49,453 nt of DNA from Flavobacteriales bacterium (GCA_017998165.1 JAGODO010000001.1:1-49453), one strand, 5' to 3'. Positions 12,631 to 19,559 are shown, counted from the first letter of the stretch. Numbers and translations are program-made. The notes: generated by a model not told the origin, from the letters alone.

Positions 12631-13557
12631 TCATGAGCTCGCCAGCACCAACCGTGCCTTCTCCTTTCCGAGACGGATCGTCGCGATCGCACCGGAGTTG
12701 AACTTGAGATGGTCCGCAGCGATGCCATCGGAAAAGATCACGCCCTTGTCCGGCATCAATGACGTGATGGTGATCTCCTGCCCTGCTTTCAATCTGCCTG
12801 TAGTGACGGCGATGCCCGAGCGCCGGCTCTGGAACGGCTCGCGCACCACGAACTGGAGTTCATTCTCCCCGAGTCCTTTCGACTTTCTGGCCTTTTCCTG
12901 CGGACCCCGAAGGAGGCCATTGGCCATGTTGTACATCGAACTCAGCCAGCCCGTGCTGCCAGAGCGCGTGGATACCAGGATACCCGATGAGCTCTGCTCC
13001 TCTTCTTCCGCTCCGAACGTGATGCGGTAACGCGCCGAGGTATGATCGCTGATACCGATGAAGAGGTCGTTGAAGGCGAGCAACCGCTGGCCGTCGTTGA
13101 GGCGCGCTTCAGCCAAGGACGCATCGCGGTGCATGTAGGCGCCAGCGACCACGCGTTCCACGGCAGCAAGACAGGTCGCGGAATTGAAAGGCAGCAGCAC
13201 ACCGTCGTAGCGCTCGGGGTCCGGGTTCACGCCGATCATGGGACGGCCGCCGACGTACTTCGCTGCGTTCGCCAGCAGGCCGTCCTGACCGATGGTGATC
13301 ACCACCTGATCGTCGCTGAAGATGAACGACGGCAGGAAGGCGCGCTCCACCACCTTGTTCTTGATCGTCCGCGCCAAACTCCGCTGCACCTCGTCCAACG
13401 CGGTGTGGAATGCGTCGTGTTCGCGCTCGTAGTCCGTGAAGTCGCCACCGTTGCGCTCGATGTAGAAGCGTGCCTGCGACCGCGTGTTGAAGCGTTCCAC
13501 GAGCATCTCCAGCCGCGTGCGGCCCCGAACGATGATCGCGTATTCGATCCGCGTCAT
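12631..13557 (-). CDS. Divergent NAD kinase-fold (NADK/DAGK/PFK superfamily) protein
   Basis: NADK motif I is degenerate: VITIGQDGLL instead of GGDGT. The motif III equivalent is ILVSTRSGSTGWLSS, versus the TPTGSTAY consensus. The start ATG overlaps the upstream SPFH stop (ATGA). Confidence 0.65.
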   Translation of the reverse strand: MTRIEYAIIVRGRTRLEMLVERFNTRSQARFYIERNGGDFTDYEREHDAFHTALDEVQRSLARTIKNKVVERAFLPSFIFSDDQVVITIGQDGLLANAAKYVGGRPMIGVNPDPERYDGVLLPFNSATCLAAVERVVAGAYMHRDASLAEARLNDGQRLLAFNDLFIGISDHTSARYRITFGAEEEEQSSSGILVSTRSGSTGWLSSMYNMANGLLRGPQEKARKSKGLGENELQFVVREPFQSRRSGIAVTTGRLKAGQEITITSLMPDKGVIFSDGIAADHLKFNSGAIATIRLGKEKARLVLASS

Positions 13558-14570
13558 TTCTTCTCCTCCTTGCGCAGCAGCTGCTCCAGCAATTCGGGAC
13601 TGATGTTCAGCGTGCCCACTTTCCCTGCGTTCTCCGCCAGCTCGCGGAAGGCCATGGCGATGTTGGAGCGCGCGTCCTGTTCACCGCGCAAGGCCATCAG
13701 CATGCGCCAGTCCATTTCCTTGTAGGGCTTCAGTGTGGTCTCCAGTACGTAGCCCTGCGCATCGGCCTCCTTGCGCTCGTTCGCCGTCTTCTGGTCGATC
13801 AACATCTTGCGCTGATCTTCCACCGCGATGTCCGCCTGCACCTTCAGTTCGCGCAGCTTGCGTTCGTTCTCGGCCTTCTGCACGTCGCTCTCCATCACCT
13901 TCTCAGCGATCTGTTTGCGCTTCTCCTCAACCGCGATCTCCGTGTTCAGCTCGCTTTCCTTGATCTTCCGCTCCTGCTCCACAGCGAAGTTCCGCCGCTC
14001 GTAGATGGCCTGGTCCGCTTCCTGCTGCAGCAGTTCGCGCGTCCCTGTCTCCAGCGCCCGCGCCATTTCCGGCGAGGCTTTCACCGCCAGCACATTCACG
14101 GAGAGCACCTCCACCCCTAGCGCCGCGATGGCCGCTGAGCCCTTGATCCCCGTGCGGATCTGCTCCTCGATGGCCTTCGCTGAACGGATCGCGTCCTTCA
14201 GCCCGATGCCGTGGATGTAAGAAGCGGTGGCCGTCTGCGCCTCGTTGATGATGCGCTGGTTCAGCTTCTCCAGGTCGTTCTTCTTGTAGATGCCCCGGCC
14301 GTCCACGGTGAAGTCGAGCAATAAGGCGAGCTGCTTGGCGTCGGCCACTTTGTAGCTCACCTGGCCTTGGATGGAGATGCTCTGGTGATCACGCGTGGTC
14401 TCCGCGAAGATGAAGGGCAGGTCGTTGCTGCCCAACGGGATCGCCGCGATGGAGCTGCTGGGGGCGAAGTAGAAGAAGGACAGGCCCCTGCCTTCCTGCA
14501 CCACTTGGCCGTTCTTGTAGTGGATGACGTGCGTCATCGCGTCGAAGCTGATGTACTTGATGCCGAACAT
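13554..14570 (-). CDS. SPFH/band-7 (flotillin/stomatin-like) domain protein with long coiled-coil tail
   Basis: The N-terminal SPFH-like core runs FYFAPSSSIAAIPLG...GVEVLSVNVLAVKASPEMARALE. It is followed by a Glu/Lys/Ala-rich heptad region (ERKIKESELNTEIAVEEKRKQIAEK...). Confidence 0.8.
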   Translation of the reverse strand: MFGIKYISFDAMTHVIHYKNGQVVQEGRGLSFFYFAPSSSIAAIPLGSNDLPFIFAETTRDHQSISIQGQVSYKVADAKQLALLLDFTVDGRGIYKKNDLEKLNQRIINEAQTATASYIHGIGLKDAIRSAKAIEEQIRTGIKGSAAIAALGVEVLSVNVLAVKASPEMARALETGTRELLQQEADQAIYERRNFAVEQERKIKESELNTEIAVEEKRKQIAEKVMESDVQKAENERKLRELKVQADIAVEDQRKMLIDQKTANERKEADAQGYVLETTLKPYKEMDWRMLMALRGEQDARSNIAMAFRELAENAGKVGTLNISPELLEQLLRKEEKK

Positions 14571-14665: not shown

Positions 14666-15382
14666 TCAGGCTCCGGGGCGACGAAGAATGAACTTGCGCT
14701 GAACATTCTGACGAACATCCATACACAGCAATACGCCATCGAGGACCGGCCCGGTCTTCGACAGCAGCTTCAACACCTCGTTCGCTTGCAGGCTGCCGAT
14801 CACCGCGCAGGTGGTGGGCATGATGCCGGTATTCGCGCAGTTGAGCAACGCATCCGCGTAGAAGGCCGACAAGTCAAAGGCCTCGCGCAGGTGGAAGCCC
14901 CGCAGATGGTGGAGCACGGTGACGTAGCCCTCCCATCCCTGCGCGGTAGCGAAGGCCAGCGGAATGCGGTGCCCGCCGCAGGCAGCGTCGATGGCGAAGC
15001 GCGCTTCCAGGTTGTCCGTGCAATCGCAGACCACATTGCGGTCGGCGACCATGTGCGCCAGTACCTCGGTGAACGGCTCGGTGATGGCCTGGATACGGAC
15101 ATCCGGGTTCTGGATCTTCAACCGTTCGGCGAGCACGGCCGCTTTGAATGCGCCGACATCTTCATGTGCGAATTGGAACTGCCGGTGCAGGTTCGTCACG
15201 TCCACACGGTCCGGATCCATGATGGTGATCGAGCCGACACCAGCAGCGGCGAGCAACGTGGCAACGGACGTACCCAAGCCACCAGCACCGATGATCAGTA
15301 CACGTCCGTCGAGCAGCTTCGCCTGGGCTTCTTCACCGAAGCCTTCCACCGCGATCTGCTGCGTGTAGCGCGCCCCGCTCAC
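14666..15382 (-). CDS. ThiF/MoeB/HesA-family E1-like adenylyltransferase (short form, no zinc CxxC pairs, no rhodanese domain)
   Basis: Motifs present: RYTQQI, the Rossmann loop LIIGAGGLGTSVA, MDPDRVDVTNLHRQ, VCDCTDN, and the crossover-loop Cys region NCANTGIMPTTCAVIGSLQANEVLK. The GTG start overlaps the TGA of the upstream ORF (GTGA). Confidence 0.85.
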   Translation of the reverse strand: MSGARYTQQIAVEGFGEEAQAKLLDGRVLIIGAGGLGTSVATLLAAAGVGSITIMDPDRVDVTNLHRQFQFAHEDVGAFKAAVLAERLKIQNPDVRIQAITEPFTEVLAHMVADRNVVCDCTDNLEARFAIDAACGGHRIPLAFATAQGWEGYVTVLHHLRGFHLREAFDLSAFYADALLNCANTGIMPTTCAVIGSLQANEVLKLLSKTGPVLDGVLLCMDVRQNVQRKFILRRPGA

Positions 15383-17949
15383 TTCCGGTTGATCTGTGAA
15401 GTGATGGTACGGTCCGTGATCTTGTCGTCCTCAGCGAGCAGAAAGGCTTTGGAAATGATCACCGATAGACCAGAGTCACCTTCGAACGGCAGGAACAGGT
15501 TCTGTGTCGGCGCTTTGCTGCGGTCCGGTACGATGCACAGATACTGGTCGTTCGGCTCCATCAGGATGTTCGTGCTTCCAAGGTGGATCTTGTAGGTGCG
15601 GATCTTGCCTTTCACCACGAGGAATTTGTCCTGGATGCTGGAGACCTTGGCGATCTTCAAGCGCGGTAACAGGCCGGTGAGGATCTCCTTACGCGTCTTC
15701 GCCACTTCACCCAGATCACCGAAGGAGTAGCTCTGCCAATAGTCGCGGTAGCCCGGCAATGCGCCACCGCTGTCCTGCCATTCGGGATCGTTGCCCACGC
15801 TGGCCACGCCCACGAAGAGGTCCACATCGCGCATCACCTCACTGAAAGCCACCACCGGAACATCCACCAGGTCCATCGGATCCTCGTAGCCGATGCGCCC
15901 GAAACGCACCTGGTCCGTGGCCATGTAGGTCCAGATGCCCGTGTCGTTCGTCGCACCATCGGCGTTCACCTCGTTCAACCAGAACTGCGCGCCGATGCCG
16001 TGATCGGGCAGCGAAACGCTCGCCCATGACCCGTCCTGCCCGTTGTCGAATGCGCCCTGCAAGGCGTACTTCCAGCCGCGGGCCTTGGCCAGCGAGTTGA
16101 ACTGGTGCTGCTTGAGCAGATGCGCTGCCATGCGGTTGCTGTAACTGCGCGTGTTCATCTCCGCGTCCGTCAGCAGATACACCTCTCGGTACGCCTGTTT
16201 CAGCGGTTGGCGGATCTCACGCGCCATCATGAACTCGCGCCATGTGCGGACATCCGCGACGCTCGCCGTGGCTGGATGCCAAAGCGAAACGGACATCGTA
16301 TCCATCGGCGTGAAGGCGTCACCCTTCATGGTCGTCCATGCGCCGTCGACAAGGATGGCAGGCATGATGCGTTCTCCGTCATGGAAATTCCAGATGATGC
16401 GATTCGCCAGGAAGCCGAGCAGTCCATGTTCCACGAAATGCTCCCGGAAGTATGGCATTGCCATAACGCGCGTGCTCCGGAACATCCGGTCGATGCGGTC
16501 GCGCTGCGCGGTGGTGCCCAGGTCCACTTGCTTTACCGCGTCCTTCATCTTCTTCAGCTTGGCGGCGTGGCCTTCCTTCACCGCTGCGGGCACCGATTTC
16601 TGGGGCGTTCCATCGGGCTTCCGCCACTCCAGTTCGCTATCGCCGGGACCGGTCACGGTGAGCGTGGCGGTGTAGCCGTCGAAGTCCCATGCGCGCGACC
16701 CGTCCTTCAATCCCAGGTCATCGCAGGCCTGATCCTCGATCTCGTACACCGTGATGCCCTTGTCCGCCGCCGCTTCCGCGAGGTACCTATCGATCAGTGC
16801 CACCGTGCTGCTCTGCTTGATGCGCAGTTTCAAGCGGCTCAATTGCCCGATACCGTCCAAGCCCTTCGAGCGAAACAAGGTGAAGAGGCACGCGTTACCC
16901 ACAGCCATCGCGGCAGGGCCTTGTTGCGGGATCTTCCGGAAGCTCCGTTCCGCCAGTGCCGCAACCGTGGTGATCGTGCGCGCATCATGGAAGTGCGCGC
17001 ACATCCACACCAGACCCTTCAGCAGATCCATGCTCTGCGTGTGCAGGAACTCCGTGGTGGTGTAGGTCTGCTCGCGTCCGTTGTAGCGGTGAACGTGTTC
17101 CGTGGTCTTTTCCTTCAGTTTGATGACGAAGTCGAACCAGGTCATCACCTGTTGCTTGAACGCGTCCGCGCCCGGGCCGTCGATCAGGGTGCGGGATGCC
17201 GCGAGGTACTTCTCGCTCGGCTTGGATCCGCTCGCTTTCATGGCGTGGCCCAGGATCGGGTACCATTTGTCCCGCAACTCCGGTGACATCGCTTGTACCG
17301 CACTGTTCACTTCCGGAACGAACGGATCATCGCCTTTGATGAGCACCGGATGCACCTCGCCTTCCCCCGCCGGTCCCGCGATGATGGCGTTGATGCGGTC
17401 GATCAGCTTGATCCGCTCCTTCTCGCTCGAATAGTTGGTCGATCCGTTTACCGTGATCCGCGTCGCGATCAGCGTCGCGCGCAGTCCATCCGAAACGGGC
17501 TTCGCCTTGTGCTGGCGTTCGATGTGCGTGAACAGCATCCCGATCGGCCACGATAGCAAGTTGACGTTTCCCCAACGGCCGTGGGTCGAGAACGTGTCCA
17601 ACAAGCGCGCGACATCCGCGTCGTCCACTACCAGCGACGCCCGAAGTACCTGTTGCACCAAGGCGATGCGGAACTCATTCCGCATGTGGTCATCACTACC
17701 GAATGTGATCGAACGCCTACCGCTCTGCCATTGATGGGTGGCGCGAGCCAAGTAGTCGAGCAGGTCAACGCGCTTCTTGTCCGGCCACGTGGACACTGCT
17801 TCCGTCCAGGCCTTCATCGACGCGACCTTCAGGCCCGCATAGTTTCCACCGTTGGCCCGATGTTCCGCTTCCAGGTCGGCGATCACCCGATCATATTCCG
17901 GATGACCGCCCAAGCCGATGGCGCTCTTCAGTTTGTCCAGCAATCCCAT
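15379..17949 (-). CDS. Large (856 aa) uncharacterised protein, DUF4132-like (MolR/YehI-type) C-terminal two thirds
   Basis: Coding is clear: it is translationally coupled on both sides. The segments HGLLGFLANRIIWNF, WHPATAS...REIRQPLKQAYREVYLLTDAE and KIRTYKIHLGSTNILMEPNDQYLCIVPD...LFLPFEGDSGLSVIISKAFLLAEDDKITD match my recollection of DUF4132-containing proteins. I saw no E2 HPN-Cys or JAMM motif. Confidence 0.55.
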   Translation of the reverse strand: MGLLDKLKSAIGLGGHPEYDRVIADLEAEHRANGGNYAGLKVASMKAWTEAVSTWPDKKRVDLLDYLARATHQWQSGRRSITFGSDDHMRNEFRIALVQQVLRASLVVDDADVARLLDTFSTHGRWGNVNLLSWPIGMLFTHIERQHKAKPVSDGLRATLIATRITVNGSTNYSSEKERIKLIDRINAIIAGPAGEGEVHPVLIKGDDPFVPEVNSAVQAMSPELRDKWYPILGHAMKASGSKPSEKYLAASRTLIDGPGADAFKQQVMTWFDFVIKLKEKTTEHVHRYNGREQTYTTTEFLHTQSMDLLKGLVWMCAHFHDARTITTVAALAERSFRKIPQQGPAAMAVGNACLFTLFRSKGLDGIGQLSRLKLRIKQSSTVALIDRYLAEAAADKGITVYEIEDQACDDLGLKDGSRAWDFDGYTATLTVTGPGDSELEWRKPDGTPQKSVPAAVKEGHAAKLKKMKDAVKQVDLGTTAQRDRIDRMFRSTRVMAMPYFREHFVEHGLLGFLANRIIWNFHDGERIMPAILVDGAWTTMKGDAFTPMDTMSVSLWHPATASVADVRTWREFMMAREIRQPLKQAYREVYLLTDAEMNTRSYSNRMAAHLLKQHQFNSLAKARGWKYALQGAFDNGQDGSWASVSLPDHGIGAQFWLNEVNADGATNDTGIWTYMATDQVRFGRIGYEDPMDLVDVPVVAFSEVMRDVDLFVGVASVGNDPEWQDSGGALPGYRDYWQSYSFGDLGEVAKTRKEILTGLLPRLKIAKVSSIQDKFLVVKGKIRTYKIHLGSTNILMEPNDQYLCIVPDRSKAPTQNLFLPFEGDSGLSVIISKAFLLAEDDKITDRTITSQINRK

Positions 17950-17951
17950 CG

Positions 17952-18341
17952 CTATCCGCCCACCAACGGCGTAAGTTTCACGAAGCTGATGCGCGTGCTC
18001 TTGCTCAGGCGCACTTCCTCTTCCAGCGTTTCGGCCTGCCGGTCATCCACCAGCATGAAGAAGACGTTGCGCGTGAACGCATCCAGCGCGACGTACACCT
18101 GCTTCTCGCCGTCCACCGCGCGCTTGTTCTTCAGCTTGAAGCCGTTCAGCGTGCGCTCGGCATCACTGGGCTCCACAAGGCCATTGAAGAACTCCGGGCG
18201 CTTATCGTTGTAACGCCGCACTTCTTCCAGCACGCGGGCTTCGATGATGTCCCGGACGGTAACGAGCTCACTGGCGAATTCCAGTTCGATCTCGTTCAGG
18301 ATGTCCCCGGCGAAGGTCTCGTCCTTGATGGCGATGAGCAT
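17952..18341 (-). CDS. Ubiquitin-like/MoaD-ThiS-like candidate, 129 aa, ending in Gly-Gly-stop
   Basis: ATG start. The C-terminus ...RISFVKLTPLVGG is followed directly by TAG. The N-terminal strand-strand-helix pattern (MLIAIKDE, ILNEIELEF, VTVRDIIEARVLEEV) is consistent with a beta-grasp. It lies 2 nt upstream of the next ORF and two genes from the E1. Confidence 0.6.
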   Translation of the reverse strand: MLIAIKDETFAGDILNEIELEFASELVTVRDIIEARVLEEVRRYNDKRPEFFNGLVEPSDAERTLNGFKLKNKRAVDGEKQVYVALDAFTRNVFFMLVDDRQAETLEEEVRLSKSTRISFVKLTPLVGG

Positions 18342-18564
18342 ACGTGGTGCGCCGAGGCCCGGCGCTGGTATCAGGTTGTTGTGTTCAGCGCGTCGAAGAT
18401 GCGCGATCGCTCGATGCCGACCACCAGCACCGGGTTGAAGTGATCATGTGGGGAAGATCGTCATCCATGAACGACAGGCGTCCGTTCCATGGAAAGAGTT
18501 GTTCCAGTTCAACGCGCCATCCCCGTCCCTGTACCAATTTCAACCCATCAAACCCGACCCGACC

Positions 18565-19458
18565 ATGAGCACATACCTGATCCTCGGCGCCACCGGCAAC
18601 ACCGGCAAACCCATCGCGCAAGGGCTTCTCGACAAGGGGCACACTGTCCGCATCCTCGTGCGTGACGCCGCCAAAGCCAAGGAACTCACCGATCAAGGCG
18701 CGGTCCTGTTCCAAGGCGATGCCATCGACAGCGACCTGTTGAAGCGCGCCCTTGCCGGAGCGGACGCGGCCTATTTCCTGGTGCCGCCCAGCTGGGGCGC
18801 TGAGGACTTCTCGGCCCACCAACGGGAGCATGTGGACGCGTTCACCCGAGCGCTGCGTGGCTCGGGCGTGAACCATGTGGTGACCCTCAGCAGCATCGGC
18901 GCGCACCTGTCGGAAGGCAACGGCGTGGTACAGGGTCTGCACTACATGGAGCAGGCGCTGAACGGCATCAGCGGGTTGAACAGCCTGCATCTGCGTTCCA
19001 CCTATTTCATGGAGAACAACCTCGGCGGCGCGGGCATGGTCAAGAACATGGGCCTGATGGGGGGGGCCGTTCGCCCCGACCTGAAACTCCCCATGGTGGC
19101 CACGCGCGATGTCGCCGCAAAGGCCCTTGATCACCTCCTGAAGCTCGACTTCGACGGCCATGGCCACGAATACGTGCTCGGGCCCCGGGAAGTCACGCTT
19201 CCTGAAGTTGCAGGCGTGCTGGGGGCCGCGATCGGCCAACCCGACCTGAAGTATGCCCAGTTCCCTTACGACCAGGCCGCACAGGGCATGATGCAGATGG
19301 GTGCCAGCGCGAGCATGGCCCAGCGCATGATGGAGTTCGTGGAGTGTTTGAATTCCGGGAGGATCCTTGAAGAGGCCCGCCGCGATGCGGTGAACACCAC
19401 GCCGACGGACATCAAGGAATTCGCACCGGTGTTCAAAGCGGTGTACGAGATGAACTGA
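18565..19458 (+). CDS. NmrA-family / NAD(P)-binding atypical SDR protein
   Basis: From the internal ATG the protein begins MSTYLILGATGNTGKPIAQGLL (Rossmann GxxGxxG). The rest has NmrA-like architecture. Confidence 0.8.
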   Translation: MSTYLILGATGNTGKPIAQGLLDKGHTVRILVRDAAKAKELTDQGAVLFQGDAIDSDLLKRALAGADAAYFLVPPSWGAEDFSAHQREHVDAFTRALRGSGVNHVVTLSSIGAHLSEGNGVVQGLHYMEQALNGISGLNSLHLRSTYFMENNLGGAGMVKNMGLMGGAVRPDLKLPMVATRDVAAKALDHLLKLDFDGHGHEYVLGPREVTLPEVAGVLGAAIGQPDLKYAQFPYDQAAQGMMQMGASASMAQRMMEFVECLNSGRILEEARRDAVNTTPTDIKEFAPVFKAVYEMN

Positions 19459-19559
19459 GCGCCACCGCACCTATCGGTCCGGCACAGCGCGGCAAGAGGT
19501 ACGGCGAGGGGTGGCGGCATGATCGCGCCGCTACCTTCGCCCCCCATTCCAGCAACCAC

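Follow-up and report, generated by a model that had tools for sequence, protein, structure and literature searches.

What could a large protein of a family without assigned function be doing between the genes of a ubiquitin-like protein and a putative activating enzyme? This question is raised by a locus in a 49,453-nt stretch of DNA from a Flavobacteriales bacterium (GCA_017998165.1 JAGODO010000001.1:1-49453), which is termed the window here; all coordinates are counted on it. Three genes on the minus strand are concerned: a beta-grasp ubiquitin-like protein (Ubl) of 129 aa with the C-terminus LTPLVGG-stop (17952-18341; translation, AlphaFold2 (AF2) and Foldseek), a large partner of 856 aa that consists of an alpha-solenoid followed by DUF4132 and DUF7737 (15379-17949; translation, Pfam and AF2 secondary structure), and a minimal ThiF/MoeB-type activating enzyme (E1) of 238 aa with a GTG start (14666-15382; Pfam ThiF). 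An earlier note on the window had described an 856-aa DUF4132-like protein embedded between a Ubl and an E1, and this arrangement is borne out by the open reading frame (ORF) calls, the Pfam matches and the two junctions. That is, the Ubl ORF reads ...KLTPLVGG-TAG with the ATG of the large gene 2 nt after it, and the TGA of the large gene and the GTG of the E1 gene overlap by 4 nt as GTGA.

Our comparison of this locus with its relatives leads to a two-part answer. The conserved unit consists of two genes, those of the Ubl and of the DUF4132-DUF7737 protein, while the E1 is facultative. The conservation further suggests that the module is an undescribed ubiquitin-like relay, here with its own activating enzyme, in which the E1-activated Gly-Gly end of the Ubl may be handed to Cys805 of the large protein. 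We hold the latter reading tentatively and put its probability at roughly 0.45.

A conserved pair of genes

Homologues of the large protein occur in two architectures, the short form of ~860 aa and a long form of ~1,700 aa with the order DUF5724-DUF4132-DUF7737. With one genome per species, 35 loci were found in Bacteroidota, Pseudomonadota, Actinomycetota and Verrucomicrobiota, and a Ubl homologue lies just upstream at 30 of them, most of the remaining loci being cut by contig ends. A Gly-Gly Ubl gene adjoins 31 of the 34 full-length short-form homologues, across four phyla. Three full-length, cysteine-bearing short forms (L008, L020 and L034) have no Ubl gene detected in the fetched flanks, and the large protein of L020 carries an N-terminal extension of ~190 aa. 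All-against-all clustering of the neighbouring ORFs yielded no other conserved neighbour except the ThiF-type E1, which was found at nine loci and in the window.

The same pairing is seen in whole genomes. In a sample of 401 evenly drawn Bacteroidota genomes, DUF7737 is present in 10, the Ubl family in the identical 10 and DUF4132 in 11, and every Ubl gene in the sample adjoins a DUF7737 gene. Among 251 Actinomycetota genomes, six contain DUF7737, with a Gly-Gly partner at all five loci fetched (5/5). Altogether, the pair is present in Bacteroidota, Actinomycetota, Pseudomonadota, Verrucomicrobiota and Deinococcus.

Could three unrelated genes, then, have come together by chance, with an ordinary MoeB/ThiF enzyme as the E1? 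The E1 does score best against the ThiF and MoeB models. However, the pairing recurs in more than 100 loci of several phyla, the co-occurrence across the 401 genomes is perfect, the junctions are as tight as a 2-nt gap and a 4-nt overlap, and the same genome has a separate MoaE-MoaD-ThiF cluster. Chance adjacency is refuted by these comparative data, and we give it practically no credence.

DUF4132/DUF7737 proteins form a large family to which no function has been assigned: the full-length family profile matches 9,620 cluster representatives at 50% identity with E<=1e-3, and 2,463 with E<=1e-30. There were no phage matches; relatives are carried on 37 large plasmid or chromid records, which are mostly non-mobilizable. 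Neither the Ubl nor the large protein has a PADLOC match, and against the NCBIfam and PADLOC defence models, including those for the anti-phage Ubl systems CBASS Cap2/3, Bil, Bub and 6A-MBL, only the E1 adenylation core gives matches, to E1-E2 models. On the grounds of the missing phage and PADLOC matches and the mostly non-mobilizable records, a phage-defence or mobile-element context was rejected.

The Gly-Gly tail and Cys805

The AF2 model of the 129-aa Ubl shows a beta-grasp fold with a helical insert at a predicted local distance difference test score (pLDDT) of 82.5. Its top Foldseek matches in PDB are MoaD, MOCS2A, ubiquitin, SUMO and Urm1, of which MoaD and MOCS2A are the best; the E-values are only 0.01-0.05, with probabilities up to 1.0. 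Compared with MoaD, the Ubl has an insert of ~45 aa. The tail is conserved over ~8 residues (KLTPLVGG), and all 30 Ubl homologues at the genome loci end in ...L(T/V)PL(V/T)GG-stop. Among the homologues the codons of the two glycines form 13 different synonymous pairs, and each of the three stop codons is used. Because the codons vary synonymously, the selection on Gly-Gly acts at the protein level; for the same reason, the idea that these codons are kept as the ribosome-binding site of the next gene was rejected.

In the large protein, the conserved residues were identified from an alignment of 41 homologues spanning four phyla. The invariant ones cluster in aa 557-850 and are mostly polar, namely H558, R571, K584, R588, E589, E597, R606, H610, D679, E704, R707, D708, D710, D721, H789, S792, N794, C805, E823, D825 and K834. 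The protein has four cysteines, and only Cys805, the cysteine of the YLCIVP motif (codon TGC, 15535-15537, minus strand), is invariant, in 41/41 homologues. The result was checked on 150 representatives with a mutual identity of at most 50%, 148 of which have DUF7737: Cys805 is present in 147 and Asn794 in all 148 of the domain-bearing representatives.

How are the tail and the cysteine related to each other? The small partner of the long forms is homologous to the Ubl, with E-values of 1e-10 to 1e-15 against the Ubl profile, but in Bacteroidota its tail reads ...LTFLAGSYW or ...LAMLSGRLW instead of ending in Gly-Gly. The last 460 residues of every form were aligned, 80 metagenome loci were added, and 101 loci were counted. 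Cys at position 805 goes with a Gly-Gly tail in 38 loci, while Ser, Ala or Asn (rarely Leu, Pro or Phe) at this position goes with G-x-[YLM]-W, a capped tail, in 63. Neither of the mixed combinations, Cys with a capped tail or non-Cys with a Gly-Gly tail, occurs (0 loci each). The link is not simply one between short and long architectures, since long forms with both Cys and Gly-Gly exist, that is, L056 (Actinomycetota), L085, L111 and DR_A0166 of Deinococcus. Asn794 follows the same pattern, being invariant together with Cys805 and variable in the non-Cys clade. His789, Ser792, Asp825 and Lys834 are retained in both clades, and H558, K584, R588, E589, E597, R606 and H610 of DUF4132 are likewise invariant in both. 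The cysteine-less, capped-tail sister clade, which is common in gut Bacteroides metagenomes and in which a Ubl family gene adjoins 59 of 64 loci, serves as a natural negative control.

Some single loci deserve mention. The long form L074 has Ser at position 805 and a partner ending in ...LVALTGGYF, where an intact Gly-Gly is capped by two residues; it may be an intermediate between the Gly-Gly and the capped-tail states. At four metagenome loci (L079, L090, L098 and L124), tandem duplicates of ~1,660 aa with the order DUF5724-DUF4132-DUF7737 carry Asn or Ser at position 805, and no small partner is detectable in the flanks. In addition, a low-confidence segment of the large protein, NDPEWQDSGGALPGYRDYWQSYSF (aa 720-742; window 15850-15930, minus strand), contains W724, D726, Y737, W738 and Y741, which are invariant in all short forms; the segment is deleted in every long form, including those with Cys and Gly-Gly.

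The invariant pair His789 and Cys805, 16 residues apart, could also be read as the active site of a Cys/His peptidase or transpeptidase. According to this explanation, DUF7737 would act like a deubiquitinase and remove or move Ubl from conjugates made by the E1 alone, and the LxGG-type tail is similar to protease recognition sites. However, no peptidase profile matches at E<=10, and His789 is kept in the cysteine-less clade, which indicates a structural role. Moreover, the Ubl is made already ending in Gly-Gly and needs no processing, and it would be unusual for a Ubl to be paired obligatorily, one to one, with a deconjugating enzyme in the absence of a ligase. A peptidase is consequently regarded as very improbable.

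The E1 gene

The E1 of the window matches Pfam ThiF (PF00899) with an E-value of 2e-59. It is most like the ThiF and MoeB models, yet it stays below every NCBIfam equivalog cut-off; it lacks the CxxC zinc pairs and a rhodanese domain and keeps the crossover-loop Cys182. An E1 gene directly downstream of the large gene, with a stop/start overlap, is found in 10 loci, all of them short-form Bacteroidota loci with Cys and Gly-Gly. These 10 enzymes fall into three groups with a mutual identity of only 28-40%, and GxGGLG, DCTDN and the crossover-loop Cys are present in every one of them, while both zinc CxxC pairs are absent. The tree of the module E1s does not distinguish a single origin from multiple ones.

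The earlier note had called for a survey of ThiF-family neighbours of DUF4132 genes and held that the position between Ubl and E1 would give the family a functional context. The survey shows such neighbours in part of the family: an E1 lies downstream at 9 of the 34 short-form loci with sufficient downstream sequence, whereas the 70 loci of the clade without the cysteine have none. Hence the context stands as far as the Ubl beside 31/34 short forms is concerned, but it extends to the E1 at 9/34 only.

Is the E1 of the window simply the housekeeping MoeB? This candidate was rejected, since the genome has its own MoaE-MoaD-ThiF cluster on another contig (C343), so that the E1 of the window is an extra copy. 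In two Flavobacteriaceae genomes, those of loci L016 and L019, the search for ThiF-family proteins gave the module E1 as its top match (G656) or as its sole match (G657), and both genomes seem to lack a canonical MoeB/ThiF. In five genomes without a cis E1, a canonical MoeB/ThiF is present elsewhere in all cases, with 256-278 bits.

These data bear on a further explanation, in which the partnership is purely non-covalent. The tail of the beta-grasp subunit would dock into DUF7737 in a regulatory or structural role, fit or redox sensing would be the reason for the retention of Cys805 and Gly-Gly, and the E1 would be an occasional accessory. The persistence of the capped tail, which cannot be conjugated, in 59/64 loci of the non-Cys clade speaks for it, as do the ~74% of Cys+Gly-Gly loci without a cis E1 and the tail conservation over ~8 residues, which exceeds what an E1 alone would need. 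On the other hand, the exact Gly-Gly-stop across phyla in spite of synonymous codon change is a hallmark of C-terminal activation. Furthermore, three divergent lineages have the gene-overlapping E1, always together with the Gly-Gly/Cys form, and in two genomes the module E1 is the best or sole ThiF-family match and has no other evident client. Weighing both sides, we find the purely non-covalent partnership unlikely.

Domains and predicted fold of the large protein

DUF4132 (PF13569) covers aa 447-626 (16072-16611, minus strand) with an E-value of 9.2e-39 and 133.7 bits against a cut-off of 27, over the whole profile (1-179). DUF7737 (PF24879) covers aa 750-853 (15391-15702, minus strand) with an E-value of 2.2e-40 and 137.2 bits against the same cut-off of 27, again over the whole profile (1-103). 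The motifs quoted in the earlier note were all found in the protein: HGLLGFLANRIIW at aa 508, WHP at aa 557, QPLKQAYREVY at aa 581, YKIHLGSTNILMEPNDQYLCIVP at aa 786, LFLPFEGD at aa 818 and LSVIISKAFLLAED at aa 828. That note assigned the C-terminal ~450 aa to the DUF4132 type, and the Pfam check it asked for, well above the cut-off, agrees with this for aa 447-626; the terminal block is assigned to another family, DUF7737. It was also right in seeing no HPN...C signature of a ubiquitin-conjugating enzyme (E2), as no HPN motif is present in the 856 aa, and in not taking the two HxH sites for a JAMM motif. The latter, HVH at aa 285 and HFH at aa 319, are not conserved among the 41 homologues and are therefore not a metal site, and no JAB profile matches the protein in Pfam.

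The AF2 model of the large protein has a pLDDT of 83.2 and a predicted template modelling score of 0.67. In this model, aa 1 to ~410 (16720-17949, minus strand) form helical repeats with a single beta-hairpin insert at aa 281-300, and the remainder is alpha/beta. With the full-length model, Foldseek against PDB returned only ARM/HEAT-type solenoids (MTP, CRM1, CAND1 and CAP-G), none with E<=1e-3, and Foldseek against BFVD gave ARM/HEAT-type or meaningless matches only. The N-terminal ~410 aa are thus predicted to fold as an ARM/HEAT-like alpha-solenoid. A cryptic E2/UBC, RWD, papain-like or JAB fold in this part, which the earlier note had suggested looking for, was not found and is rejected in view of the predicted solenoid and the absence of any profile match. 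No sequence relatives of the large protein or of the Ubl were found in PDB, and a hidden Markov model (HMM) comparison gave no match between the short-form N-terminus and the DUF5724 of the long forms, so that homology between these two was rejected.

Three segments of the large protein were also searched at E<=10, and no Pfam family beyond DUF4132 and DUF7737 was found; in particular, there was no match to MoaE (PF02391) or to a WGR domain. No recognised enzymatic domain, such as a sulfurtransferase or a cofactor biosynthesis enzyme, matched at this threshold that would explain the operon in a conventional way. As for DUF7737 itself, the AF2 model predicts a helix (748-763), five short strands (770-804), Cys805, a loop, and two further helices (826-839 and 847-853). 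The secondary-structure order of aa 748-853 is compatible with that of UBC (helix, four-strand meander, Cys loop, helices), although the Foldseek matches of the full-length model concern the solenoid only.

The Deinococcus member

On chromosome II of D. radiodurans (NZ_OV024759.1, locus L148, 717-7661), a gene for a beta-grasp-like protein of 134 aa is followed after 2 nt by that of a DUF4132-DUF7737 protein of 1,626 aa. This pair is DR_A0165/DR_A0166, and the large protein and Ubl of the window belong to the same module type: in both cases a Gly-Gly Ubl gene is located 2 nt upstream of a DUF4132-DUF7737 gene. The tail of DR_A0165 is LRLTALAGG, and DR_A0166 carries ...FLCIVP.... The differences are that DR_A0166 is a long form (1626 aa versus 856 aa) and that there is no adjacent E1 in Deinococcus.

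The Deinococcus pair is the only member of the module with experimental data. The drA0165-drA0166 operon is strongly upregulated on DdrO depletion (PMC8533742). The product of DR_A0165 becomes more abundant after H2O2 treatment and gamma irradiation, a deletion mutant survives H2O2 better, and in pull-downs the protein bound the thioredoxin DR_A0164 (PMC9650054). The authors predicted it to be MoaD/SAMP1-like and held it to be a Deinococcus-specific peptide encoded by a small open reading frame (sORF), without connecting it to the large gene (PMC9650054). Consequently, the functional context which the earlier note expected to be the first for this family is not quite the first, because this pair had already been reported as stress-induced, although it was not recognised there as a conserved module (PMC8533742, PMC9650054). 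In the searches made, no paper was found in which the small and the large protein are connected or the module is described.

DR_A0165/DR_A0166 directly follow two YeeE/YedE-family genes and trxC, a sulfur/redox neighbourhood that is unique among the loci. Could the pair then be a sulfur carrier of the MoaD-MoaE or ThiS-ThiG kind? In this case, the E1 would adenylate the Ubl, a persulfide on Cys805 would lead through an acyl-disulfide to a thiocarboxylate, and the DUF4132 pocket would use the sulfur on some substrate. Besides this neighbourhood and the thioredoxin bound in the pull-downs of DR_A0165 (PMC9650054), such a role would fit the best structural matches of the Ubl (MoaD and MOCS2A), an E1 nearest to the ThiF/MoeB models, and the failure to find an E2, a ubiquitin ligase (E3) or a deconjugating peptidase. 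A trans-shared E1 would also be typical, and a canonical MoeB/ThiF is encoded in 5/5 of the genomes whose module has no E1 in cis. However, there is no MoaE, rhodanese, TusA or sulfurtransferase profile match, even at E<=10, the cis E1s have no rhodanese domain, and no sulfur-metabolism neighbour is conserved. Moreover, a large clade keeps the pair without Gly-Gly or Cys, which is hard to square with a sulfur role of the terminus only. A sulfur carrier is likewise considered unlikely.

A proposed relay

We return to the relay through Cys805. From the gene linkage, the Ubl and solenoid folds, the E1 family and the coupling among Gly-Gly, Cys805, Asn794 and E1, we infer the following chemical steps. 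An E1 would adenylate the Gly-Gly terminus of the Ubl, the cis enzyme in the window and a housekeeping MoeB/ThiF-type enzyme acting in trans elsewhere. The activated carboxyl would then pass to Cys805 of DUF7737 as a thioester, with Asn794 assisting, so that DUF7737 would serve as an E2- or HECT-type carrier without sequence kinship to either. In the last step, the Ubl would be transferred either to the large protein itself or to a target that the solenoid/DUF4132 body holds. A role of the system in the stress response is probable, because oxidative and radiation stress induce the Deinococcus pair. It would be a further step to regard DUF7737 as a new class of Ubl-thioester-forming domains and the module as a third, stress-induced type of bacterial Ubl conjugation with a pseudo-enzyme sister clade; this is possible but doubtful.

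Several points weigh against the relay. In the tree of the C-terminal region, there is one change of the Cys state and one of the Gly-Gly state, and both fall on a single branch. The covariation is one event in evolution and has no statistical weight, and statistical support for it was rejected on this ground; after the event, the states are strictly maintained on one side, and the constraint is relaxed on the other. Pfam at E<=10 finds nothing but DUF7737 in aa 745-856, with neither a UQ_con nor a Prok-E2 match, and hhalign of DUF7737 against human UBE2D2, UBE2N, UBE2I and UBE2L3 gives a probability of 1.4%, so that homology of DUF7737 to E2 is rejected at the sequence level. In the Foldseek search with the full-length model, the solenoid dominates the matches, and there is no E2-like structural support for DUF7737. 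About 74% of the Cys+Gly-Gly loci have no nearby E1, for which the use of an E1 in trans has to be assumed, and neither profiles nor neighbour clustering made an E3, a deconjugating peptidase or a target evident at the loci. In Deinococcus, the radiation/desiccation response motif (RDRM) was not found upstream of DR_A0165, in partial conflict with the DdrO report (PMC9650054). Neither a thioester nor a conjugate is known from any organism, and the relay is a proposal.

Comparison with known systems

In MoaD-MoaE/MoeB and ThiS-ThiG/ThiF, as in the module, a Gly-Gly beta-grasp protein is encoded beside a larger partner, and a MoeB/ThiF-type E1, possibly encoded elsewhere, activates the small protein, as we suppose for the window. 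However, the large protein has no similarity to MoaE or ThiG and differs from them in its length of 856-1700 aa, its solenoid and its invariant Cys. Unlike the MoaD system, the module is not in a cofactor-biosynthesis neighbourhood, and the genome of the window has its own MoaD-MoaE-E1 cluster. In the archaeal SAMP/UbaA and Thermus TtuB/TtuC systems, which do without a canonical E2 or E3, a Gly-Gly beta-grasp protein is the substrate of a MoeB-like E1 with a crossover-loop Cys, and both sulfur transfer and protein conjugation are possible. These systems are not known to have a dedicated giant partner, whereas the Ubl of the window is tied to one partner gene whose Cys its terminus tracks.

A parallel may also be drawn to ubiquitin E2 variant (UEV) domains, which are cysteine-less ubiquitin-conjugating folds that keep binding ubiquitin. 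Similarly, the Cys clade has a partner with an activatable Gly-Gly, while its sister clade has lost both and keeps the pair. The survival of the pair after this loss would resemble a UEV/UBL-type degeneration more than the fate of a sulfur carrier, although DUF7737 has no detectable sequence relationship to UBC/UEV.

The operons of Bil, Bub and CBASS Cap2/Cap3 (e.g., PMC10557695) are similar to the module in that a Ubl and an E1 are encoded in a bacterial operon. The module of the window differs from them in having neither a UBC-type E2 nor a JAB or other deconjugating peptidase, and in the absence of a PADLOC match (Ubl and large protein), a phage match or a defence-island neighbourhood.

How close, finally, is the large protein to MolR/YehI of E. 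coli, with which the earlier note had compared it? DUF4132 is common to both, and aa 904-1145 of YehI match the first half of the C-terminal profile with an E-value of 5e-23, but YehI ends soon after and has no DUF7737, and YehK does not match the Ubl profile. Therefore, the Ubl partnership belongs to the DUF7737-bearing branch and not to DUF4132 as such. In YehI/MolR, moreover, DUF4132 is accompanied by WGR and by MoxR-VWA-SWIM neighbours (yehL, yehM, yehP and yehQ), neither of which the window module has. A WGR domain is present in one of nine extended short-form representatives. P0216, a relative of 1,121 aa, has an N-terminal WGR ahead of DUF4132-DUF7737 and bridges the MolR-type and the Ubl-partnered branches.

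Other genes around the locus

According to Pfam and NCBIfam, the neighbours of the large gene in the window are, besides Ubl and E1, SPFH, NADK-like and NmrA-like genes. An ORF upstream of the Ubl gene (18385-19470, minus strand) was discarded as a shadow of the plus-strand NmrA-like gene. Downstream of the E1 gene, on the same strand, two genes occupy 12631-14570: one encodes an SPFH/band-7 protein of 338 aa, the other an NAD-kinase-like protein of 308 aa, which has weak NCBIfam NADK matches and no Pfam match. The two genes were rejected as members of the module, as they are downstream only in the closest relatives, L002 and L003.

Implications

The chemistry of Ubl and E1 is already known, while the literature searched contains no description of an obligate giant partner whose cysteine domain is not of the UBC type. 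The locus in the window is the fullest version of the module, with Ubl, large partner and dedicated E1, and offers an explicit and testable scheme. If the relay is true, it would explain a radiation- and oxidation-induced Deinococcus operon of unknown role, and a thioester-type system would exist in thousands of protein clusters from at least five phyla. A further ubiquitin-like relay would then exist in bacteria, one whose carrier is not of the UBC type, and this would bear on the origin of E2-like functions.

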